A stretch of DNA of 18,973 bases from Candidatus Poribacteria bacterium (GCA_036339735.1 JAYZAL010000076.1:1-18973); one strand, 5' to 3'. Shown: positions 5,117-16,977, counted from the stretch's first letter. Notes: generated by a model not told the origin, from the sequence alone. Program-made: numbers and translations.

Positions 5117-8100
5117 ATGTGCCCCAAGATACCGATTACCAAACAACATTTTAGTTCTCGGTTCCACCTTCTCTCCCAATTTATCAGGATAATAGCTTAC
5201 CTTTCGGTTTGTTTATCATTACTAGCCGACGAAGTATACTCAAAGACGATTCAAGTTCCACAACAGCAACTAACGATACAAGCAGCTATAGATCTGAGCG
5301 CAAACGGAGATACAGTTCTAGTAGCCGACGGAATTTATACAGGGTTAGGTAATGTTAATCTAGATTTCAAAGGTAAGTCCATCACAGTTAAGTCTGCTAA
5401 CGGCGCTCAATATTGTATTATCGACTGCCAAAAGATTAGTTCCAGCCGAGGTTTCTTATTCCAGAACCAGGAGAGTCAGAGTTCTGTATTAAATGGTTTT
5501 ACTATCCGGAACGGTAATGTCGTAAACGACAACGGTGGAGGCATTTATTGTATCTCCGCTTCCCCAACGATTATCAGTTGCATTCTAACCCAAAATGTGG
5601 CCGCAGCAGGAGGAGGAATCTTCTGCCAAGATTCAGATGCCATGATTAGTAACTGTTTGATTTTGGAAAATCATGCTAAAGGTGGTGGCGGGATCCAAGC
5701 ACATCAGGGAACACCAACTATCACTGGTTGCCAAATTACTAATAATAAGGCTGAGACTGGTGGTGGAGTTTTTTCAACGCAGGCCTCAGTTGTAGTAACT
5801 AATACTGTTATTTCCAGTAATCAGGCTGATTATGGAGGAGGTGTACTTTGCTGGTCAGATTCACTGATGTTTCTAAATTGTAATACGATAACCGATAATC
5901 AAGCGATGTTTGGTGGTGGAATTTTTTGTAGTAATTCTGATCTACTCTTAGTTAATTCAATTCTGTACAAAAACATAGAAAGCATTGATAATCAAGCCCA
6001 ACAAATGCATTTTGGTAAATCAGGACAACCAATCGTAGTTGACATTTCATATAGTCTGATTCAAGGTGGAAAAACTTCCGTCATCACAGATGAGACAGTC
6101 ACCTTGAAATGGGGAACTGGCAATATTAATGCAGATCCCAAATTTGTGAATCCTACCACTGGTGACTACCGCTTACAAGATGAATCGCCAGCTATAGGTA
6201 GTGGGATCAAAGATGAAAGTATGCCAACAGTAGATATTGAGGGACAAGATAGGCCATTTCCGAGCCAAACTCAACCTGATCTTGGAGCTTATGAACATGG
6301 TCGAGGCCAAAGGCTTGAGACTCAGCCGATTGAAACCGAAACTTTTCCGGATGTATTGATTGATACTAGCAAAGGAAAAATTCGACTCACTGTTTATCCT
6401 GAGTCCGCACCATTGACAGTCCAAAATTTCTATAAGCTTATCCGGCAACAATTTTATGACGGACTAACCTTCCACCGTTATGTACCATTGTTTGTGATTC
6501 AAGGTGGCTGTCCACTAGGTAATGGGACCGGAGGACCAGGCTGGACAATCAAAGGTGAATTTCAGAATCCTAAGTTGAAAGCTAAAATGCCCGAACATAC
6601 CCGAGGTGTTTTAGCTATGGCTAGATCAACACACCCAGATTCAGCTGGGAGTCAGTTTTATATTTGTTTAGCTGATGCTCCACACTTAGACGGTAGCTAC
6701 ACGGCTTTTGGTAGGGTCGTAGGTGAGGGAATGACAGTAGTAGATGAATTGCGTCAAGGGGATAAAATGCTATCAGTCCGACTCATGGAAGAGGTTACTG
6801 AGGTTCTGTTACCAACAAAAATGACGATTACTCCGCAAAAGAATAGTTTGCCAGCGGACGGCAAATCAGTTACTCCTATTGATATTACGATTTTGGATCA
6901 GAATGGTAATGGATTAGCTAACCAAAAAATCGAGCTGGAAACTAGTTTGGGTTATGTTTCGTTGGTGGAAGATCATGAGGATGGCACCTACACGATAAAA
7001 TATACAGCCGGAACTGAAAAAGGGCAGGAAAACCTGATTGTCAAAACCGATGGCCCAATAGGTATGAGCCTAATCAGATTGACCGAACCGATGCGACCAA
7101 TGAAAATGAAAGTAGTCGTTACTGATAGGTCATTACCTGCAGATGGGAAATCAACGACAAAAGTTGAGATATCTATATTCGATCAAATGGACAAAGGGCT
7201 AGCAGGTCAACAAATTGAAATGTTAGCTACTACAGGAACCTTGACGGATTTAGTAGATAATGGGAATGGGACCTATACTGCTACCTACATTAGCGGAACC
7301 GAAATTGGGTCAGCCCAACTGAGCTTAAAAACCGATAATGAACAACTCAGTCAAGTTACTGTTCGACTCTTTGAACCTATTGTCTTGTCAAAAGGTGAGT
7401 TTAAAGTGGAAATTGAGAATCCAGTACAGTCTGTCCAAATTGGCGATCAACCCCAGACGGAAATTACGGTTTTGGCCAAGGATGGGTTTTCCGACACGGT
7501 TTTCTTATTCTTAGCTGGTCTCCCAAAGGGTATTTCCGCTCAAATCCAACCTCTTTCGGTTGTTATCAACGAAGAAAACAAACAAGCCAGCGCCATGCTC
7601 CAGCTCACTATTAGCCCGGATGCAGAAACAACGGGGCGAGCTTTTATTCTTTTAGCTACGGGTTCAGATACTGGCCAAACAAGACGGAAACAAATGACCG
7701 TAATTGTGTCCCCATCAACGAAGCCCTTTACTCTTATGGACCTCAAGATAACTCCTACTGATCCAACCGTTGGTCAGTCAGTTTTGATTTCGGCACATCT
7801 TACTATACAGCCAATTAAAACGATTGTATCTCCTCTACCAAAAGTAGATCAACTATCACTGAAATTGTTATTGGCTGATCCACACGAGAAATCCATTCAA
7901 CATCGGGCCCAAACGAATGCAGAAGGAAAAATCGAGTTTTGGCAATTGGTAGAGAATTCAGGACGCTGGAAGGTTAGTGCACATTTTGATGGAACGGACT
8001 TAATCAAACCCATCGTAAAGGAAACAACATTTTTGACTGAATCAGCGGAGACAAATCTAAAATGGGGGACTCCTGCAAAAATAACTTTGGGGCAAGAAGT

Positions 8101-8986
8101 TAAGATCAGTGGATATCTTCGTCTGAAAAATTCACCTCATACAGGAATAGTCAATCAATTTGTTGACTTAACTGCATTTCTACCGGAAACTTCGGAAACA
8201 ATTACCTTTCGAGTTCAAACTAATATGGATGGTTATTTTGAGCAACCAGTCCTAGCTGACCAAGCAGGTATTTGGGAATTGACCGTGAACTGGCCAGGTA
8301 ATAGGAACTACCAAAAATCCAATAACCATCGTCAATTATCAGTCATTTTACCCTCTAAAAAACCTGAGTTAGTCGGGGATGCCAATGGAGATGGGATGAC
8401 CAATATTTTCGATTTAGTTATGGTAGCTGGCCAATTTGGATTGACTGGACCGAATTTAGCTGGAGATATTAATAAAGACAATCTGATAAATATCTTTGAT
8501 TTAGTCTTGGTTGCTAATAATTTTGGCCAAGCGTTATCTGGTGCACCGAATCAGATAAACCTAACGTTGACTAGCCAACAAACAAATCGGTTAGCAAAAG
8601 TAATAAAGCAGTTACAGAACAAAATCGATTTATCAGTAATTGAAGCTGGAATTTTAGAATTGCTAATACACTTTGTTCAACAACAGACTCCCGATGTAAC
8701 AAAATTACTGACGAATTACCCTAACCCATTTAACCCAGAAACTTGGATTCCCTTTCAGTTAAGTAACAATTCGATTGTGACGATCACAATTTATAGCATC
8801 GAGGGATATTTGGTTCGGCAGTTCAACCTAGGACAAAAATTGGCTGGTCGTTATTTAAGCCAAAAACAAGCTGTTTACTGGAATGGAAAATCACAAACAG
8901 GTGAGTCTATGGGCAGCGGAACCTACTTTTACCAATTGCAGGCAGGCGACTACATAGAAGTACGAAAAATGTTAATTTTAAAATAA
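5117..8986 (+). CDS. Large secreted multidomain protein: right-handed beta-helix + cyclophilin PPIase + 2 invasin-type Ig + further Ig-like domains + dockerin-like + FlgD/T9SS-type-A-like C-terminal domain
   Basis: Hydrophobic signal region (IIAYLSVCLSLLA); TIQAAID/GDTVLVADGIY and repeated GGGI-x-C beta-helix motifs; FHRYVPLFVIQGG...SQFYI...FGRV cyclophilin (~6350-6787); LPADGKS...DGTYT twice; paired GDxNxD-xx-NIFDLV motifs (8375-8527); NYPNPFNPETWIPFQL...YWNGK...GTYFYQL...RKMLILK (8705-8983). Confidence 0.9.
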   Translation: MCPKIPITKQHFSSRFHLLSQFIRIIAYLSVCLSLLADEVYSKTIQVPQQQLTIQAAIDLSANGDTVLVADGIYTGLGNVNLDFKGKSITVKSANGAQYCIIDCQKISSSRGFLFQNQESQSSVLNGFTIRNGNVVNDNGGGIYCISASPTIISCILTQNVAAAGGGIFCQDSDAMISNCLILENHAKGGGGIQAHQGTPTITGCQITNNKAETGGGVFSTQASVVVTNTVISSNQADYGGGVLCWSDSLMFLNCNTITDNQAMFGGGIFCSNSDLLLVNSILYKNIESIDNQAQQMHFGKSGQPIVVDISYSLIQGGKTSVITDETVTLKWGTGNINADPKFVNPTTGDYRLQDESPAIGSGIKDESMPTVDIEGQDRPFPSQTQPDLGAYEHGRGQRLETQPIETETFPDVLIDTSKGKIRLTVYPESAPLTVQNFYKLIRQQFYDGLTFHRYVPLFVIQGGCPLGNGTGGPGWTIKGEFQNPKLKAKMPEHTRGVLAMARSTHPDSAGSQFYICLADAPHLDGSYTAFGRVVGEGMTVVDELRQGDKMLSVRLMEEVTEVLLPTKMTITPQKNSLPADGKSVTPIDITILDQNGNGLANQKIELETSLGYVSLVEDHEDGTYTIKYTAGTEKGQENLIVKTDGPIGMSLIRLTEPMRPMKMKVVVTDRSLPADGKSTTKVEISIFDQMDKGLAGQQIEMLATTGTLTDLVDNGNGTYTATYISGTEIGSAQLSLKTDNEQLSQVTVRLFEPIVLSKGEFKVEIENPVQSVQIGDQPQTEITVLAKDGFSDTVFLFLAGLPKGISAQIQPLSVVINEENKQASAMLQLTISPDAETTGRAFILLATGSDTGQTRRKQMTVIVSPSTKPFTLMDLKITPTDPTVGQSVLISAHLTIQPIKTIVSPLPKVDQLSLKLLLADPHEKSIQHRAQTNAEGKIEFWQLVENSGRWKVSAHFDGTDLIKPIVKETTFLTESAETNLKWGTPAKITLGQEVKISGYLRLKNSPHTGIVNQFVDLTAFLPETSETITFRVQTNMDGYFEQPVLADQAGIWELTVNWPGNRNYQKSNNHRQLSVILPSKKPELVGDANGDGMTNIFDLVMVAGQFGLTGPNLAGDINKDNLINIFDLVLVANNFGQALSGAPNQINLTLTSQQTNRLAKVIKQLQNKIDLSVIEAGILELLIHFVQQQTPDVTKLLTNYPNPFNPETWIPFQLSNNSIVTITIYSIEGYLVRQFNLGQKLAGRYLSQKQAVYWNGKSQTGESMGSGTYFYQLQAGDYIEVRKMLILK
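6815..7336 (+). repeat. Tandem intragenic duplication of an invasin/Big_1-type Ig domain (6815-7051 and 7100-7336)
   Basis: Both copies read K-M-x7-SLPADGKS-x-T...D-Q-x3-GLA-x-Q-x-IE...D-x3-GTYT-x2-Y-x2-GTE-x-G...KTD, with a period of 285 nt (95 aa). Confidence 0.85.
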
Positions 8987-9091
8987 ACATCTAACTTCAA
9001 GCTTAGGTAGTCGAATTCCCATATAGCCTAATTCCAAATCGTTTGCCAAACATCGAACTTAGTCAAAATATTGATTTAAATTGGTGATCAT

Positions 9092-10150
9092 ATGAGTACA
9101 TGTAGAGGGGCCGTATTTTTTGAAGGTAAGAAAGTATTGGCAATAAAAAAATTTCCAATACCTGAACCAAAACACGGTGAGTTACTTGTCAAAATTGAAG
9201 CCTGTACGATTTGTGGAAGTGATATCCATACCATTCAAGGTAAACGCAGTGAAAAATCACCAACCATTTTGGGACATGAAGTTGTTGGTACGATCATTGA
9301 TTTATCTAGCCCGGTCCGTGATTTTAACGGTTTACAGCTAGAAGTTGGTCACCGAATTACTTGGTCAGTTTGTTTCAGTTGCCGGGATTGTGATCGATGC
9401 CGAAACGATATGCCTCAAAAATGTCGACAATTGAAGAAATTCGGACATGAGTATGTACATGGAGATGGACCTTTACTTGGTGGTTTCTCGGACATGGTTT
9501 TATTGCCTGCACAAGCTACTGTATTCCAGATTCCCCCTGAAATAAAATCAACCGTAATTTGTCCTGTAAATTGTGCAACAGCGACCGTAATCGCATCTAT
9601 GGAACTAGCTGGAAAAGTAAAGAACAAAAGAATTCTAATTATTGGTGCCGGGATGTTGGGTTTAACCGCTGGAGCATACTGTAGTTCTAGAAAAGCTAAG
9701 GAAATCGTATTCCTTGATCAGAATAAGAAACGAATTGAGTTGTCTAAGTCGTTTGGTGCAAGCAAAATTGGAAATTCGTTTATGGATTGTATGGATGATA
9801 ATGCTGGTGCTTTTGATCTCATTTTTGATTTTGCAGGTTCAACCCAATTAATTCAGCGGTCATTAGATTTTCTTACTATTGGTGGTAAATTAATCTTGGT
9901 TGGAACAGTAATGCCTGTACCTGAATTAACTCTCAAACCGGAGTCATTAGTTAGAAAATTGATCTCAATATATGGAGTCCACAATTATCGTCCAGAACAC
10001 CTAAATAAAGCCATTGAATTTCTTTTGGAACAAGCTGATAATTATCCATTTGCTGAACTTGTTGAGAGATCTTTTCCTCTAGAAAAGATCAACGAGGCTA
10101 TCAAATTTGCGACTAATTTCAAGCCTCTTCGAGTGATGATAGAACCATAA
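9092..10150 (+). CDS. Zn-dependent (MDR) alcohol dehydrogenase, phosphonate-catabolism-associated (HpnZ/TIGR03366-like)
   Basis: Catalytic Zn CGSD and GHE; structural Zn CRDCDRC-x7-C; NCATAT; GAGMLG; C-terminal GVHNYRPEHL, which I recall as typical of the HpnZ-like subfamily; neighbours phnX. Confidence 0.85.
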   Translation: MSTCRGAVFFEGKKVLAIKKFPIPEPKHGELLVKIEACTICGSDIHTIQGKRSEKSPTILGHEVVGTIIDLSSPVRDFNGLQLEVGHRITWSVCFSCRDCDRCRNDMPQKCRQLKKFGHEYVHGDGPLLGGFSDMVLLPAQATVFQIPPEIKSTVICPVNCATATVIASMELAGKVKNKRILIIGAGMLGLTAGAYCSSRKAKEIVFLDQNKKRIELSKSFGASKIGNSFMDCMDDNAGAFDLIFDFAGSTQLIQRSLDFLTIGGKLILVGTVMPVPELTLKPESLVRKLISIYGVHNYRPEHLNKAIEFLLEQADNYPFAELVERSFPLEKINEAIKFATNFKPLRVMIEP

Positions 10151-10639
10151 GTGAACTTCATAGCGTCGATTGATTATCACTTCCGCAATCCTTAGTCTAG
10201 AATCGTGAGATAATGGAAAGTTAGCCCAAGGAGAACCTATTTGATTGTGCTTTATGGCATTTAGATTAATGACGGTCAGATTATTATAGTTATAATTCAT
10301 ATCTCAAACTTAGACATACACTCGAAAAGTGTCAGCAGGTCGATAGAAGTATGTTTTCATATTCTAAGGATAGTCAGTTCAGTCCGTGTAGAAAGCTAAA
10401 ATAACTTTTTCTCTAAGAACTACTAATCTACAAACTTGAGCTAACAATCTTTCTTTTGATAAAATGACTTCGTCGTTAGTAATCAGAATGAATAGCATAG
10501 ATAATAGCATTCGAGAATGTGAAGAAAAGTGGATTAACCTAAACAAAATAAAAAATATAATTTTGTAACTGCAAACAGTGTAACCATCATATTTTAAAAT
10601 GAATAGCTATCTATTAGCCAAAGTAACAGAGTAAAAAAA

Positions 10640-11770
10640 TTGAAAAAATATGACGTAGCCATAGTAGGCGCTGGAATTGTAGGGCTTGCTCATGCTTTTC
10701 AAGCTGCAAAACGAGGACTCAAAGCTATCATCTTCGAAAGAACTGAGCAGGCTGAAGGTGCATCGGTTCGGAATTTCGGTATGGTTTGGCCAATCGGCCA
10801 GAATGCAGGTGATCTATATGATATCGCACTTTTGTCACGACAGATTTGGTTAGAGCTAAATGACGAAAAAGTTGTCGAAGTGGAAGAATGCGGATCTATC
10901 CACCTAGCCCACCATTCTGATGAAATGATCTTATTGGAAGAATTTGTAAGTCAAAAGACTCACCAGTCTGAAATTATTGATGCTACGGAAGTTATTAATC
11001 GATCAGTGCTCGCCAACGAATCTGGGCTGCTGGGTGGGATGTATTCCCCAACTGAATTGCGAATTAATCCTCGGACAGCTCCTCACAAAATCGCGCACTG
11101 GCTATTAAAAAAACCTAATGTTGAAATTCGGTTTAATACTTCGATTATCAAAATTGAGAGTAATCGAATGATTTCCTCCGACGGCAGGTCTTGGGAAGCC
11201 AATAAAATCATGATATGTAGTGGTAGCGATTTAAAAACCTTATACCCAGATGAATTCATAAAATCGGATTTAGTACTGTGTAAACTACAAATGCTTAAAT
11301 CTGTATCTCAAAAAAAACTGCTGAATACCCAGACACCACATCTTGCTAGTGGACTGACTCTGCGCCACTACAGTTGTTTTGAGAATTGTCTCTCTCTGGA
11401 AAAACTGAAACAAAGAATTCAATCAGAAACACCAGAATTGGATTTGTTTGGTATTCACGTGTTAGCATCTCAGTTTCCCAATGGTGAGGTTATTCTGGGG
11501 GATTCCCACGAATATGGGGATCAAATTACACCATTCAATAAAACAGAAATTGACGAATTAATGATTCGCGAGCTCAAGAAAGTCATTAAATTGGATGACT
11601 GGACAATAAGAGAACGATGGTATGGTGTCTATGCGAAGCATCCAGAATTACCCGTATTTGATCATCGTGTTGACGACTGTGTTTCCTTATTCGTCGGTAC
11701 AAGTGGTGCGGGAATGACAATGGCTTTTGGGTTAGCAGATCGATATTGGAATAACTTAAGTAGGAATTGA
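10640..11770 (+). CDS. FAD-dependent amine oxidoreductase, DAO/glycine-oxidase fold (TIGR03364 HpnW-like; PbfC/PbfD-type aminophosphonate oxidase candidate)
   Basis: TTG start; DVAIVGAGIVGLAHA; GASVRNFGMVWPIGQ; LCKLQML; GLTLRHY; ILGDSHEY; RWYGVY; SGAGMTMAFGLA. Stop lies 1 nt before phnX. Confidence 0.88.
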   Translation: MKKYDVAIVGAGIVGLAHAFQAAKRGLKAIIFERTEQAEGASVRNFGMVWPIGQNAGDLYDIALLSRQIWLELNDEKVVEVEECGSIHLAHHSDEMILLEEFVSQKTHQSEIIDATEVINRSVLANESGLLGGMYSPTELRINPRTAPHKIAHWLLKKPNVEIRFNTSIIKIESNRMISSDGRSWEANKIMICSGSDLKTLYPDEFIKSDLVLCKLQMLKSVSQKKLLNTQTPHLASGLTLRHYSCFENCLSLEKLKQRIQSETPELDLFGIHVLASQFPNGEVILGDSHEYGDQITPFNKTEIDELMIRELKKVIKLDDWTIRERWYGVYAKHPELPVFDHRVDDCVSLFVGTSGAGMTMAFGLADRYWNNLSRN

Positions 11771-11771
11771 A

Positions 11772-12638
11772 ATGCCATCATTAAAACACCTCAAGGCTAT
11801 TGTATTTGATTGGGCTGGAACAATGATTGATCATGGAAGCCGGGCTCCAGCAATTGTTTTTCAAGAAATCTTTCGACAACGAGGAATAGAAATAACTATT
11901 GACCAAGCGCGAGAACCAATGGGAATGGCCAAACGGGAACATATTTTAGCTATTACTCAAATGCCAGAGGTTCAGAAAAAGTGGGTTGAGAGATTTGGTA
12001 GATCGTCTGCCGATCCAGATGTTGACGAAATGTATAAACAGTTCTTACCGTTACAAAAAACAACGTTAAAAGATCATAGTCAAATGATCCGAGGGGCAAC
12101 GAAAGCCGCAGAATTATGCCGTAACCTCGGATTGAAAATTGGATCAAGTACAGGGTACACGAAAGAGTTGATGACCGATGTTTCGGCTATTGCGAAAGAA
12201 CAAGGATATGAGCCTGACCTAATTCTTTGTGCTGAAGATGCACCACGTGGTCGACCTGCACCTTACTTACTATATGAAGCATCAAAACGATTGGATGTTT
12301 ATCCGATGTCTACAATTGTGAAAGTTGACGATACAATACTCGGAGTTAAAGCCGGAGTAAATGCAGGCTGTTGGAACGTCGGAGTTACACGGACTGGGAA
12401 CTTGTTGGGGCTTTCCTCAGAAGAGGTAGAGGAGTTGACGGAAAATCAACTGGATCATATGATATCTTCAGTAGGTCAACAAATGTTGGATGCAGGCGCA
12501 CATTTTATAGTTGAGTCTGTGGAAGATATTGAGATTGCTTTAACTTATTTTGATGAGTTGCTAGATCAAGGAGCTTCTCCAAACGATTTTACTTTTTGTT
12601 CACAACTTATAACTTGGTCTAATACAATGAGCGGCTAA
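11772..12638 (+). CDS. phnX: Phosphonoacetaldehyde hydrolase (phosphonatase)
   Basis: Nucleophile motif FDWAGT; cap-domain Schiff-base lysine motif REPMGMAKREHI; IGSSTGY; GRPAP; VKVDDT; AGAHF. Confidence 0.93.
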   Translation: MPSLKHLKAIVFDWAGTMIDHGSRAPAIVFQEIFRQRGIEITIDQAREPMGMAKREHILAITQMPEVQKKWVERFGRSSADPDVDEMYKQFLPLQKTTLKDHSQMIRGATKAAELCRNLGLKIGSSTGYTKELMTDVSAIAKEQGYEPDLILCAEDAPRGRPAPYLLYEASKRLDVYPMSTIVKVDDTILGVKAGVNAGCWNVGVTRTGNLLGLSSEEVEELTENQLDHMISSVGQQMLDAGAHFIVESVEDIEIALTYFDELLDQGASPNDFTFCSQLITWSNTMSG

Positions 12639-12932: not shown

Positions 12933-13946
12933 ATGACATTTCGAGCAGCAGTTATTGGATGTGGCCGAATAGGTAGTACAATAGACGATGAACAAGCTAA
13001 TCGTCCTCAATTTCGTTATCCTTGGGCTCATGCACCAGCCGTTATCGAAGCTCAGGGGATTGAATTAATCGCTGGATCTGACGTCCGTCCAGAACAGTTG
13101 GATGACTTTAAAAATCGTTGGGGAGTCACCGCTCTTTATACCGATTATCTCGAAATGATCAAACAAGAGCAACCAGACTTAGTTTGTGTAACCACAAAAA
13201 CAGTAGAACGGGCTGAGGTAGTTATCAGATCGGCAGAAGCCGGTGTAAAGGCTATTTATGCAACTAAACCTATGTGTCGGAGTTTAGCTGAAGCTGATGA
13301 AATGATCGAAGTCTGCCAGAAGAACAATACTATTTTAGCCATTGCTTGTCATAAGAACTGGAGCCCTTGGTTCCAAGTTTGTTTGAAAACCATCCGGGAA
13401 GGTCAAATTGGCTCTTTTATGTCGATGGTATGTAATTACAGTTGGAACCTAGCCAACGGACATAGCCATACACTATCGCTTTTTCGCCAATTTGCTGATT
13501 CTCCTGCTAAGTGGGTTTTTGGTCGTATGAATAGCGATGAAGCAGCCAAAACTGATAAAGATCTTAGTGGTAATGGTATGATCTATTACGAAAATGGAGT
13601 CCAAGGTTTTTTAAATTCTGGCGGTTGGCTAAATATTGATTTCATTGGAAAGGATGGTTGGATCAGCGCTCGTAATGAGCATGCTGATTTCGAGTTTTGG
13701 GGTCGGCACCCGTCGACTAGAGAACCGATTCGTCGGCAATTTCCTAATCCCAAACGCCCTAAAAGTTCTCAGCAAGCCGCAATCGAAGGGTTAGTTGGAA
13801 ATCTACGAGAAGGTACCACTCCACTTTGTCCTGGTGAGTACGGACGGGAAGCTTTGGAAATTGCTATTGGCTTACGTGAGTCTCATCGACAAGGTGGACA
13901 AAAAATAGATTTACCTTTAGCTGATCGTAGCTTGTCTCTGGGTTGA
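12933..13946 (+). CDS. Gfo/Idh/MocA family oxidoreductase (divergent)
   Basis: AGGAG RBS; AAVIGCGRIG; YTDYLEMIKQEQPDLVCV; AIYATKPM (variant of CEKP); REALEIAIGLRES. Confidence 0.9.
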   Translation: MTFRAAVIGCGRIGSTIDDEQANRPQFRYPWAHAPAVIEAQGIELIAGSDVRPEQLDDFKNRWGVTALYTDYLEMIKQEQPDLVCVTTKTVERAEVVIRSAEAGVKAIYATKPMCRSLAEADEMIEVCQKNNTILAIACHKNWSPWFQVCLKTIREGQIGSFMSMVCNYSWNLANGHSHTLSLFRQFADSPAKWVFGRMNSDEAAKTDKDLSGNGMIYYENGVQGFLNSGGWLNIDFIGKDGWISARNEHADFEFWGRHPSTREPIRRQFPNPKRPKSSQQAAIEGLVGNLREGTTPLCPGEYGREALEIAIGLRESHRQGGQKIDLPLADRSLSLG

Positions 13947-13973
13947 TTACCATACAGAATTCTGGAAAGAATC

Positions 13974-14795
13974 ATGATGGAAATTACAGCTAGACAATGG
14001 GAAGAGTTCGATCGGGAAGGATTTCTGTTTTTAGGTCAGGTGGCAACTGATAAAGAACTAGCCGATATGCAACAACGAATTGATGATATCATGTTGGGCC
14101 TAGCTCGAGTTAACTATGACCAAATTATGATGCAGTTAGACCGAGAGCCTGATACTGGCCGACCAGGTCCACAAACGAGGGGACACAAAGGGTCAACACT
14201 CCTGTATCGTAAAATTCAACAACTAGAGTTTGACCCCTTTTTTCTGTCTTACATGAGACATCCAATTTTTGAGGCTATCTGCCAGCGGACTTACGGTCAG
14301 CAAGCACCAATCAGTTGTTACCGAGCTATGTTCATGAATAAACCTGCAGAAGAGGGTACTGACCTTGCTTGGCATCAAGACCGATGGGACGATCTTGATC
14401 AAGATCCCGAAATAACTATTTATACAGCGCTTGACTCAGCCTGTCGTGAAAACGGTTGTGTCCACGTAATTCCAAGGTCTCACCGAAACGAGTTCAACTC
14501 ATACCAAAAGGCTGGGCAACTTAACCCCCAGCAATTGGAGGAAATCACTAACCAAGCACAAACGAAGCCATTGGAGCTATCAGCTGGTGAAGTTGTGCTG
14601 CTACATAATTGGACACTGCACAAATCGGGTACTAATCGAACCCAAACTCCACGTCGAGCGTTTAGTGTTTGCTATATGCGTGCGGACACTAAAATTCAGC
14701 CTCCACAAAGTGGAGAATTTCCAATCATATTTGGTGAAGGCGCACTGACAGAGGAAAATTTACCCAACTATCAACCATCAATTATCTATGTTTGA
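13974..14795 (+). CDS. Phytanoyl-CoA dioxygenase (PhyH) family Fe(II)/2-oxoglutarate dioxygenase
   Basis: FDREGFL; MNKP; WHQD (HxD); ALD-x4-ENGCVHVIPRSH; LHKSGTN-x4-PRR. Confidence 0.92.
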   Translation: MMEITARQWEEFDREGFLFLGQVATDKELADMQQRIDDIMLGLARVNYDQIMMQLDREPDTGRPGPQTRGHKGSTLLYRKIQQLEFDPFFLSYMRHPIFEAICQRTYGQQAPISCYRAMFMNKPAEEGTDLAWHQDRWDDLDQDPEITIYTALDSACRENGCVHVIPRSHRNEFNSYQKAGQLNPQQLEEITNQAQTKPLELSAGEVVLLHNWTLHKSGTNRTQTPRRAFSVCYMRADTKIQPPQSGEFPIIFGEGALTEENLPNYQPSIIYV

Positions 14796-14837
14796 AAATA
14801 AAGGTACCGCTTAGTAAATAGTACCAAGAAACAAACG

Positions 14838-14873
14838 GACTAAGAAACAGTGGATCTCCACTGTTTCTTAGTC
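14838..14873. terminator. Perfect 17-bp inverted repeat between convergent genes (probable bidirectional terminator)
   Basis: GACTAAGAAACAGTGGA-tc-TCCACTGTTTCTTAGTC, between the stops at 14795 (+) and 14905 (-). Confidence 0.8.
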
Positions 14874-14904
14874 TAAAGATAATCAGATTCTGGTTATTTT
14901 TCTT

Positions 14905-15732
14905 TTACTGTTCGTTAGGAGTTAACCTGATCTGACTCCAAGTGATAGCTAGCTTGTCTCTGGCCTCAACAGCAGTTGAAAACTCTTTAGCCCCGATTTG
15001 CATGCTCATTTTAATCTCGGCGTCACTTAGAGCGCGATTCCATAACCGAACTTCGTCAACAGAGCCAGGAAAAGCTTCTCCGGCCCAAGTACCGATTTGT
15101 ACAGCATCCTTGTTGGCTGCGGGCAAAACAGGATTCTTCGACTTTTCCTCGTGTGTAGCTATGCCATCAACAAAGATCCGGACTAGTCCATCATCCGCAG
15201 TCGTATGGGTATAGGCAAGATAATACCATTGCCCAACCTTGAGTTTAGTTTTGTTGTCGTTGATATCCTTGAATCCACCTTTGGCTCCGTTAGTCCAGAC
15301 TTTGATTCCATTTGATGGGTTCATTCCATAGCCAAAGCTGATGTGGCGTCCACCAGTGGCAGGTGGGTTTTTTCTGATGCCAAAAACTACAGCATGAGCG
15401 CTAGGTAGTTTGTCTAGTTTGACCCAAGCTGCTTGAGTAATTGCTCCTTCAATATGAAAGACTTTATTATCGTCAACTAAAACACGATCGGATGATGCAG
15501 AAAATTGAAGAGCTTTGCCAAATTTACCCGCGACCCACTTAGCATTCCCTTCAACGGAACCTTTTAGCTCATTACTGGAAACGTCTGCGACAGACTTTCC
15601 TGTTCCTTCATCAAAGGACATATACATAACCAAGCCCTTTTTCAAATCAACGTCCTTGATACCGGCTTGAACCGTCAAACATGATAAGGCTACTAATACT
15701 ACAATAGCAATAGAACTAATTTTACGAAACAT
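14905..15732 (-). CDS. Secreted LamG-like jelly-roll (ConA-like lectin/glucanase) protein with C-terminal AVE-x3-KL-x2-TW motif
   Basis: Signal peptide MFRKISSIAIVVLVALSCLTVQA; YMSFDEGTG...D-x-S; GKFGKALQF; WYYLAYT; IFVDG; F-x-GSVDEVRLWNRALS-x2-EI; ends AVEARDKLAITWSQIR; GGAG RBS. Confidence 0.92.
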   Translation of the reverse strand: MFRKISSIAIVVLVALSCLTVQAGIKDVDLKKGLVMYMSFDEGTGKSVADVSSNELKGSVEGNAKWVAGKFGKALQFSASSDRVLVDDNKVFHIEGAITQAAWVKLDKLPSAHAVVFGIRKNPPATGGRHISFGYGMNPSNGIKVWTNGAKGGFKDINDNKTKLKVGQWYYLAYTHTTADDGLVRIFVDGIATHEEKSKNPVLPAANKDAVQIGTWAGEAFPGSVDEVRLWNRALSDAEIKMSMQIGAKEFSTAVEARDKLAITWSQIRLTPNEQ

Positions 15733-15802
15733 GTTACAACTATCTCCAAATTTTGGTTGGTAAAAAATTAGTGAAGATTTATAATCCTCAATTTCTCAGG
15801 CT

Positions 15803-15830
15803 ATCATACCAAGGAAATATACAAAGTCAA
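15803..15830 (-). promoter_or_regulatory. Putative sigma70 promoter for the LamG gene
   Basis: Minus strand TTGACT (15830-15825), 16 nt spacer, TATGAT (15808-15803), preceded by TGG (extended -10). Confidence 0.55.
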
Positions 15831-16086
15831 GATTTAGTATTAATAGAAGTGAAAAGTAATATTTCGACCTTATCGAATTTAAAAAATATCTAACAAATTA
15901 TGCCACACGTGAGATCAATCGAAATTTATGCGTACTTACTGGTAATTATTTCCGATTTTCCCTCAAAATTTATTATTACAAGTCCACCAAAATCTTCTTC
16001 CGCCAAATGACTAATAATCTGTTAATAAAATTAAAACAAAAAAATTAGAAAACATATGATTTCTTTAATCGATTTCACTGAAAATC

Positions 16087-16116
16087 TTGCCAGTAGCGTG
16101 AATCTCGTGTTAAGTT
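16087..16116 (+). promoter_or_regulatory. Possible sigma70 promoter for 16141..16977
   Basis: TTGCCA (16087-16092), 18 nt spacer, TGn-TAAGTT (16111-16116); GGAG RBS downstream. Confidence 0.35.
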
Positions 16117-16140
16117 AATGCATTTAATGGAGTGAAATAA

Positions 16141-16977
16141 ATGAGAATTGAGGTTAGTTCTAACGAGTTAGAGCAGGGAGAGCTATCGAATGATCACCTT
16201 GAACAGGCTATTAACAATATTCGGGTAGAAGGGTACACGATTCTTGGCAATATTGTCTCAACCGATCATTTAGATTTCTTGCATCAGAAAATGACAGATG
16301 ATTCCCATTCTATCATCAGTGCAAACGCTGAAAGGTGGTCTGGTCGTCTTCAAATTGGTCAATTGCAGCAAGGACCACCACCTTTTGCCCCGTATTTATT
16401 TACTGATATTGTTTCCAATCCCATTGTTGAGCACCTTAGTATCACACTATTAGGGAAGGGAGCCTTTAATGGATTTTATAATGGTAATACCAATGCACCA
16501 GGTAGTACTCAACAAGGTTTGCATATGGATGCTGGACATCTGTGGCCAAATCTGAACCCTTCTCACCCTACTGTTTCAGTAGTAGTAAATATTCCAACAA
16601 TAGAAGTAACGGAGGCAGAGGGAGCAATCGAACTCTGGCCAGGAACACATTTGATTGGAGATGTTTCCCGAGGCTTAGATACTGAAACAGAAGAAAATAG
16701 ACGCAAAGTACGGCCTCCGGTTCGAGGTGAAACACAAAAGGGTGATGTGCTCATCCGAGACATGCGCCTGTGGCACCGAGGTACATCTAACAGATCTGAT
16801 CAGTACCGACACATGATTGCTTTAGTCCATAACGTTGGTTGGTTGCGTAGGGGTCAAAGACTTCGTTATGTCAAAGGATGTGAGTCAATTTTTCAAAATT
16901 GTCGTGTGGATCCACACACAGTCTTCCTAGACGAATCCCACGACTATTTATTTGATTATCGTGGGCCTAATGTGTAA
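16141..16977 (+). CDS. PhyH family Fe(II)/2OG dioxygenase (KanJ-like subgroup possible)
   Basis: VEGYTIL; NTNAPGSTQQGLHMD (HxD); GAIELWPGTH; GDVLIRDMRLWHRGTSN-x-S-x3-R. Confidence 0.9.
   Translation: MRIEVSSNELEQGELSNDHLEQAINNIRVEGYTILGNIVSTDHLDFLHQKMTDDSHSIISANAERWSGRLQIGQLQQGPPPFAPYLFTDIVSNPIVEHLSITLLGKGAFNGFYNGNTNAPGSTQQGLHMDAGHLWPNLNPSHPTVSVVVNIPTIEVTEAEGAIELWPGTHLIGDVSRGLDTETEENRRKVRPPVRGETQKGDVLIRDMRLWHRGTSNRSDQYRHMIALVHNVGWLRRGQRLRYVKGCESIFQNCRVDPHTVFLDESHDYLFDYRGPNV

Follow-up and report, generated by a model that had tools for sequence, protein, structure and literature searches.

A predicted hydrolytic phosphonate cassette of planctomycete type (pbfG, pbfD, phnX) in a Poribacteria-type genome, and the apparent staged loss of a phnZ-like gene

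The window analysed here, a stretch of 18,973 nucleotides, is the entire contig C76 of the genome assembly of a Candidatus Poribacteria bacterium (GCA_036339735.1, JAYZAL010000076.1:1-18973). At positions 9092-12638 it carries three plus-strand genes in the order pbfG, pbfD, phnX. These probably constitute a hydrolytic cassette for phosphonate breakdown which is derived from Planctomycetota and has two entries and one exit (PhnX), with PbfD widening the pathway. The reading draws on family membership, catalytic residues, purifying selection and linkage, and the substrates are predicted from characterised homologues. The source genome (G000) has 4.32 Mb in 107 contigs, with 92% completeness, 2.4% contamination and a G+C content of 40.6%. 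The cassette is made up as follows, all positions being those of the window.

9092-10150, plus strand: pbfG-type zinc-dependent alcohol dehydrogenase (Zn-ADH), predicted 2-hydroxyethylphosphonate (HEP) dehydrogenase; 352 aa; TIGR03366, Pfam ADH_N and ADH_zinc_N
10151-10639, no strand: non-coding spacer of 489 bases at the site of the planctomycete 185-aa phnZ-like HD-domain oxygenase gene
10640-11770, plus strand: pbfD-type amine oxidase dependent on flavin adenine dinucleotide (FAD), predicted to oxidise 2-aminoethylphosphonate (AEP) and N-methyl-AEP (M1AEP) to phosphonoacetaldehyde (PAA); 376 aa, TTG start; TIGR03364, Pfam DAO
11772-12638, plus strand: phnX, phosphonoacetaldehyde hydrolase; 288 aa; TIGR01422, Pfam HAD

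Families were assigned with the curated cut-offs of NCBIfam, and Pfam served as a second library. The original prediction for this region, made from the sequence alone, had proposed a cluster of a Zn-ADH, an FAD oxidase and PhnX and had named three profiles against which it could be checked. All three are exceeded by the respective gene product: TIGR03364 with 414.1 bits (cut-off 285.1, spanning model positions 1-365 of 365), TIGR03366 with 353.8 bits (cut-off 328.1) and TIGR01422 with 322.2 bits (cut-off 220). The proposed cluster is thus borne out by three same-strand genes, each of which is the only over-cut-off match to its profile in the genome. The open reading frames (ORFs) of all three are intact in the window genome and in two sister genomes (G001 and G002). 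The ratio of nonsynonymous to synonymous substitution rates (dN/dS), determined against the two sister genomes, is 0.106 and 0.121 for pbfG, 0.097 and 0.108 for pbfD, and 0.089 and 0.093 for phnX, at dS values of up to 1.18; ratios as low as this (0.09-0.12) show that purifying selection acts on all three genes. The 15 ORFs of the window that were scanned against NCBIfam and Pfam include no match to phnW, phnY, phnA, an HD-domain protein, a transporter or a regulator, in agreement with what had been stated before, and three of the 15 have no family match in either library. The whole window has no match in Rfam. Between positions 8800 and 13100, 21 promoter-like sites were counted against 12.6 +/- 3.4 expected, all of them consensus-level matches only, and no terminator-like site was found; pbfG and pbfD-phnX may be transcribed as one unit or as two.

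The linkage of the oxidase gene with phnX, on whose conservation in relatives the original prediction had been staked, is found well beyond the window. All 15 genes of the window recur in both sister genomes, with their order unchanged. A wider set consists of the best 80 loci from a scan of named genomes with the PbfD alignment, mostly from Planctomycetota; features in these loci were counted by tblastn together with family checks, and loci cut by a contig end stay in the denominators. One of them, L022, is a Candidatus Poribacteria locus with 94% identity and the gene order of the window. Of the 73 loci that extend 1 kb or more downstream of pbfD, 50 have phnX directly after it; counted anywhere in the locus, phnX is present in 56 of 80, all 56 exceeding the TIGR01422 cut-off. 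Six further candidates scored best on the PhnX-like model TIGR03351 and were not counted. A gene with TIGR03366 as its best family accompanies pbfD in 41 of 80 loci (31 of 53 among those flanked by 5 kb or more on each side); 37 of the 41 genes exceed the cut-off, two fall short of it at about 307 bits and two are truncated. Relative to pbfD, they are upstream on the same strand in 17 cases, divergent upstream in 19 and downstream in five. pbfG, pbfD and phnX occur together in 34 of the 80 loci. No phnW within 8 kb and no PhnD homologue was found in any of the 80. Among 41 related genomes, G000 included, pbfD (TIGR03364) is confined to three, all of one genus; phnX is present in 14 and phnW in six, the latter all within the family.

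PhnX carries the motifs FDWAGT (with D13) and PMGMAK (with K54), scores only 76.7 bits on TIGR03351 and aligns to a solved phosphonoacetaldehyde hydrolase, 2iof_A, with an E-value of 1.5e-65. That a canonical PhnX, recognisable by DWAGT and PMGxxK, starts 1 nt after the FAD gene had been seen correctly: the stop codon TGA of pbfD ends at 11770 and the ATG of phnX begins at 11772, which leaves a gap of one base. D13, M50, G51, K54, H57, T127, Y129, R161 and D187 correspond to Asp12, Met49, Gly50, Lys53, His56, Thr126, Tyr128, Arg160 and Asp186 of 2iof_A. All are invariant in the 59 aligned PhnX sequences except for Y129, which is kept in 57. We take Asp12 (the nucleophile), Lys53 (the Schiff base), His56, Thr126, Tyr128, Arg160 and Asp186 to be the active-site residues of PhnX from B. 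cereus. Two other positions differ from 2iof_A: Cys22 is replaced by Ser, as in 51 of the 59 rows, and Asp190 by Gly, while position 186 carries an additional Asp. HAD motif IV (residues 186-191) occurs in two mutually exclusive forms, DDTxxG in 50 sequences including that of the window and GDTxxD in nine, which looks like the relocation of an acidic residue. In this genus, PhnX has a C-terminal tail that extends about 34 residues past the family model (residues 255-288 in the window protein).

For the FAD oxidase, the next best family after TIGR03364 is ThiO with 83.7 bits. PF01266 (DAO) matches residues 5-367 with 134.1 bits, and an N-terminal GxGxxG is found at residues 10-15, in which G10, G12 and G15 are invariant throughout the PbfD alignment. 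The FAD enzymes of AEP clusters have been divided into the three groups PbfB, PbfC and PbfD, and TIGR03364 is the annotation given for PbfD1 of A. baumannii (Zangelmi et al., iScience 2023, PMC10590968). PbfD1 and PbfD2 are reported to be oxidases which convert M1AEP and AEP to PAA with O2. Their preferences are not the same: M1AEP is preferred over AEP about 18-fold by PbfD1 (and about 400-fold by PbfC; Table 2 of PMC10590968), and PbfD2 of Mariniblastus fucicola is only 4-fold slower on AEP than on M1AEP. According to the same source, PbfD1 is usually accompanied by phnW and phnX and the other pbfD genes mostly by phnX alone, and the idea that PbfD-type enzymes stand in for PhnW has already been put forward there (PMC10590968). 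The closest named homologues of the window PbfD belong to Planctomycetota, with at most 64% identity. These relatives, together with a context in which none of the 80 loci has phnW, point away from the PbfD1 subgroup.

The Zn-ADH had been given no role in the original prediction; that of a PbfG-type HEP dehydrogenase fits and is now predicted. A Zn-ADH with domain pf00107 that is recurrently clustered with phnX or with phnY-phnA has been named PbfG (Piazza et al., Protein Sci 2026, PMC13576164) and is reported from Planctomycetota among other phyla. It oxidises HEP to PAA with a kcat/KM of 88,500 M-1 s-1, phosphate being released when PhnX is present, and is nearly inactive on ethanol, 1-propanol, L-threonine and AEP (PMC13576164). 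The genome has 28 matches to TIGR03366 ('putative phosphonate catabolism associated alcohol dehydrogenase'), of which the 27 outside the cassette do not exceed 128 bits, and the next best family of the window protein, L-idonate 5-dehydrogenase, reaches 129 bits against a cut-off of 469. In all 41 aligned homologues, C41, S43, R52, H62, E63, H119, C161 and N298 are invariant, as is the structural four-Cys site (C97, C100, C103, C111). The CGSD and GHE motifs align with those of the solved Zn-ADH 1vj0_A; among solved structures its closest relatives, generic Zn-ADHs and threonine dehydrogenases, are matched with E-values of 3.5e-28 and weaker. For PbfG of C. protaetiae, the zinc ligands Cys45, His66 and Cys166, a four-Cys structural site and modelled HEP contacts by Ser47, Arg56, His124 and Asn298 have been described (PMC13576164). 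C41/H62/C161, S43, R52, H119 and N298 of the window protein fit these by residue type and offset only. From the shared context definition and these residues we infer that TIGR03366 describes PbfG.

The cluster had been described as lacking phnW, which holds for the window and, within 8 kb, for the related loci; it does not hold for the genome. A full phnW (TIGR02326, 554.9 bits, cut-off 400.8) is located on contig C41 (54952-56028; L007 9429-10568, minus strand), next to thyX and two ORFs without family match. What lacks phnW is thus the cluster; the organism itself has the gene. phnW is present in six of the seven genomes of the family, and wherever both genes were found in a family genome they are on different contigs. 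The proposal that the FAD enzyme replaces PhnW is therefore unsupported as it was written; PbfD may instead be an addition to PhnW. PEP (phosphoenolpyruvate) mutase, PhnA and PhnJ have no match in this 92%-complete genome. The genome search for phosphonate transporters, which had been suggested along with that for phnW, yielded a PhnD on contig C77 (TIGR03431, 289.9 bits, cut-off 261.1) with no ABC partner found nearby, and a phnCDE-like set on contig C1 whose binding protein scores best on a selenate-type model. On contig C104 (L102 8379-11176), a PhnY*-like 2-oxoglutarate (2OG) dioxygenase (NF052437, 231.5 bits, cut-off 500), a PhnZ1-like HD oxygenase (NF052439, 226.8 bits, cut-off 300) and a transporter of the major facilitator superfamily (MFS) follow each other in a row. 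This trio looks like a second, oxidative phosphonate locus, with both enzymes below their equivalog cut-offs.

In the pathway that we propose, PbfG would oxidise HEP to PAA with NAD(P)+, and PbfD would convert M1AEP, and probably AEP too, to PAA with O2, with the release of methylamine or ammonia and of H2O2. PhnX would then cleave PAA to acetaldehyde and phosphate by means of the Lys Schiff base and the Asp nucleophile. The unlinked PhnW encoded on C41 could also supply PAA from AEP to the PhnX of the window, and PbfD would widen the pathway rather than demonstrably replace PhnW.

The spacer between pbfG and pbfD, which the original prediction had not mentioned, contains no plus-strand ORF of at least 60 aa. 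Planctomycete loci have a gene for a protein of about 185 aa between pbfG and pbfD. All five proteins scanned from this interval score best on TIGR03276 ('phosphonate degradation HD-domain oxygenase', of the PhnZ kind), four of them above the cut-off. Many planctomycete loci (within L023-L101) have such a PhnZ-type HD oxygenase directly before pbfD, and of the 75 loci that extend 700 bases or more upstream of pbfD, 40 have an HD homologue no further than 200 bases ahead of it. When only the 34 loci with pbfG, pbfD and phnX are considered, the HD gene is present in 28 and absent from six, L022 being among the latter. The interval differs between the three sister genomes, with 489 bases in G000, about 520 in G001 (L020 ~9050-9570) and about 80 in G002 (L021 ~9355-9434). 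In G001 it holds a match to positions 107-177 of the 185 positions of the HD profile, with 33 bits and three in-frame stops, at the distance before pbfD expected for the gene; a run of N is also located in this interval. We interpret this match as the remnant of a phnZ-like pseudogene. Nothing recognisable is left in the roughly 80 bases of G002, and a recognisable phnZ remnant in the window spacer was rejected (best tblastn E-value about 0.8, hmmsearch with the HD profile E = 4). Compared to G002, the window spacer has 411 extra bases, which match nothing elsewhere in the genome and nothing in G001. As an RNA element the spacer was rejected with no Rfam match, and as a repeat or mobile element because blastn against the genome retrieves only the spacer itself. 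On these sequence comparisons, the loss of a phnZ-like gene appears to have been caught at three stages across the three sister genomes.

The origin of the cassette was addressed by one tree each for PhnX, PbfD and PbfG, computed by a quick maximum likelihood procedure (IQ-TREE, LG+G4) in which the root is not inferred. In each of them, the proteins of the genus and those of the Planctomycetaceae loci L023-L025 form a group of six rows, with support values in the Shimodaira-Hasegawa-like approximate likelihood ratio test (SH-aLRT) of 100 for PhnX, 98 for PbfD and 99 for PbfG. In the PhnX tree this group is placed several nodes deep in a clade of 48 rows that otherwise belongs to Planctomycetota. 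For four further genomes from this family or order, the PhnX proteins are 40-45% identical to that of the window and constitute a separate clade (SH-aLRT 100); no pbfG, pbfD, HD gene or phnW was found within 8 kb of their genes. Forcing all seven PhnX proteins of the poribacterial lineage into one clade costs 67.9 log-likelihood units and is rejected by the approximately unbiased (AU) test (p = 0.0195). Any transfer of the cassette would be old, because its G+C content is 36-40% as compared to 40.6% for the genome. Frequent horizontal transfer of such clusters has been noted before (PMC10590968). We infer that the ancestor of the genus acquired the entire cluster from Planctomycetota as pbfG-phnZ-pbfD-phnX and that the phnZ-like gene has since been lost. 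The phnX of the cassette would stand in place of the different PhnX lineage seen in the rest of the family and would now be the only phnX of the genus. It is conceivable, if on balance doubtful, that the genus swapped the PhnX of its family for this planctomycete cluster and then shed phnZ as redundant with the PhnY*/PhnZ-like pair on C104, so that a two-entry funnel was left alongside the unlinked PhnW. If true, this would illustrate, in a marine phylum that is uncultured, how one pathway displaces another and is then pruned where it is redundant.

Several points weigh against the interpretation as a planctomycete-derived cassette with two entries. The window PbfD may accept AEP nearly as well as M1AEP or much less readily. 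The main text of the PbfG paper never names TIGR03366 (0 occurrences in PMC13576164), and the residue match of the window PbfG to the C. protaetiae enzyme is one of pattern and offset. It has been argued that PbfG and an AEP route, when co-expressed, engage in a tug-of-war over PAA, and that PbfG is inhibited by AEP and PbfD by HEP (PMC13576164). With this mutual inhibition and competition, the HEP and AEP entries may not run at once and may therefore serve at different times. There is neither a transporter nor a regulator among the 15 window ORFs scanned. Selection by likeness to the window PbfD makes the set of 80 loci lean to Planctomycetota. The trees were obtained by a quick method with LG+G4, and the group submitted to the AU test was chosen after the tree had been seen. 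Finally, with the genome 92% complete, a second phnX or pbfD could be unassembled.

Among the other explanations, the one to be taken most seriously assigns PbfD an accessory role: it would serve M1AEP (perhaps also N,N-dimethyl-AEP), the unlinked PhnW would handle AEP, and the cassette would widen the range of a dispersed PhnW-PhnX pathway and replace nothing. We regard this as a real possibility, somewhat less probable than its opposite. It gains from the full phnW in this genome (554.9 bits), for which a biosynthetic role is unlikely since no PEP mutase was found, from the presence of phnW in six of seven family genomes, and from the marked preference of PbfC and PbfD1 for M1AEP (about 400-fold and 18-fold, PMC10590968). 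What speaks for AEP as a substrate is that the 0 of 80 loci with phnW within 8 kb present the context tied to the AEP-accepting PbfD group, whose PbfD2 is 4-fold slower on AEP (PMC10590968), and that the closest relatives are from Planctomycetota, the phylum of the characterised PbfD2.

The Zn-ADH might not be an HEP dehydrogenase and might instead reduce the acetaldehyde made by PhnX or act on another (threonine-like) hydroxy compound, its gene being a separate transcription unit that is merely nearby. The 489-base spacer with promoter-like matches before pbfD would suit this, as would the generic Zn-ADHs and threonine dehydrogenases among the closest solved relatives. We nevertheless consider it improbable, given the score above the TIGR03366 cut-off against 129 bits (cut-off 469) for the next family, the 27 other genomic matches at no more than 128 bits, the company of pbfD in 41 of 80 loci, the invariance of the residues that match the proposed phosphonate-binding set, and the report that the characterised PbfG is without appreciable activity on ethanol, 1-propanol and L-threonine (PMC13576164). 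Even less credit is given to the view that the cassette is a decaying, non-working remnant of a transferred cluster. The loss of the phnZ-like gene, with a pseudogene remnant in G001, is what decay would leave, and the window has no linked transporter or regulator; against this stand three ORFs intact in three genomes, dN/dS values of 0.09-0.12 at dS of up to 1.18, the conservation of every catalytic residue checked, and the fact that the genome search turned up no phnX other than that of the window. Decay of the cassette is thus very improbable.

Genes next to the cassette were also considered. Downstream, at 12933-16977, there are a GFO/IDH/MocA oxidoreductase (12933-13946), two PhyH-family dioxygenases (13974-14795 and 16141-16977) and a Laminin_G_3 protein, which are syntenic inside the genus and have no clear homologue in the other 79 loci. 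The GFO/IDH/MocA gene was rejected as a member of the cluster, with a clear homologue only in L022 of the 80 loci and a weak one in L069. The same applies to the PhyH gene at 13974-14795 (clear homologue only in L022, weak ones in L026 and L061), whose product scores 42 bits on the PhnY* model with its cut-off of 500. Similar kinds of genes surround the PhnD gene on C77 (L018 255-6565), where PhyH dioxygenase, Zn-ADH-like, LamG/TafC-like and GFO/IDH/MocA genes mirror those found downstream of the cassette. Upstream, at 5117-8986, a protein of 1289 aa is encoded with a cyclophilin-type peptidyl-prolyl isomerase domain, Big_1/invasin D3 repeats, a choice-of-anchor Q domain and a T9SS C-terminal sorting domain.

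The cassette resembles the PbfD2-PhnX system of M. fucicola (PMC10590968) in having a TIGR03364-type oxidase directly before phnX in a cluster without phnW. It differs from it in that M. fucicola apparently has no phnW genome-wide, whereas the window genome has one on C41, and in that the host is of Poribacteria type rather than a planctomycete and the window oxidase is known from sequence alone. Mariniblastus sp. loci are among the 80, with PbfD proteins 44-50% identical to that of the window. With the HEP clusters of PbfG (PMC13576164) it shares the linkage of a pf00107 Zn-ADH to phnX, such clusters occurring in Planctomycetota and other phyla. In that source the legend of Figure 2b names phnZ and refers for the colours of the other genes to panel a, where pbfD is among the coloured genes; it is stressed there that HEP and AEP clusters are often separate (PMC13576164), whereas pbfG, pbfD and phnX are together in the window and in 34 of the 80 loci. 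Unlike planctomycete pbfG-phnZ-pbfD-phnX loci, the window cassette has no phnZ-like gene. The word 'Poribacteria' does not occur in the main text of the PbfG paper (PMC13576164). With the classical PhnW-PhnX (phosphonatase) pathway the cassette has in common the intermediate PAA and PhnX as the last enzyme, with the same catalytic residues; in contrast to a classical phnWX operon, phnW is not adjacent to phnX.

AEP-type phosphonates have been treated for the same phylum in the description of Poribacteria single-cell genomes (Kamke et al., PLoS One 2014, PMC3909097). The PhnY*-like and PhnZ-like pair on C104 resembles the phnY/phnZ pair of those genomes. That route employs two oxygenases to yield glycine and phosphate without PhnX (PMC3909097), unlike the window cassette, which would be hydrolytic via PhnX. 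As far as the main text goes, only the oxidative PhnY/PhnZ route is described for Poribacteria, and neither 'phnX' nor 'phosphonoacetaldehyde' occurs in it (PMC3909097). The literature searched contained no paper with both 'Poribacteria' and 'phnX'; the two key papers were covered by their main texts, and their supplementary tables may list this gene order or these genomes.

All components of the cassette, as well as the idea of PbfD in place of PhnW, are already in print. What is new is the host, the evidence for displacement of the family phnX by a planctomycete cassette, and the staged loss of phnZ. With the enzymology already published, the value of the finding lies in annotation and evolution and not in mechanism.

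Much of the dissolved organic phosphorus in the sea consists of phosphonates, and which organisms can use which of them is of importance. For a genus of Poribacteria type, the cassette is a predicted hydrolytic route to HEP, AEP and M1AEP. In addition, it would be a natural example of a catabolic cluster that moved between phyla, with the resident phnX lineage displaced and one member gene lost.

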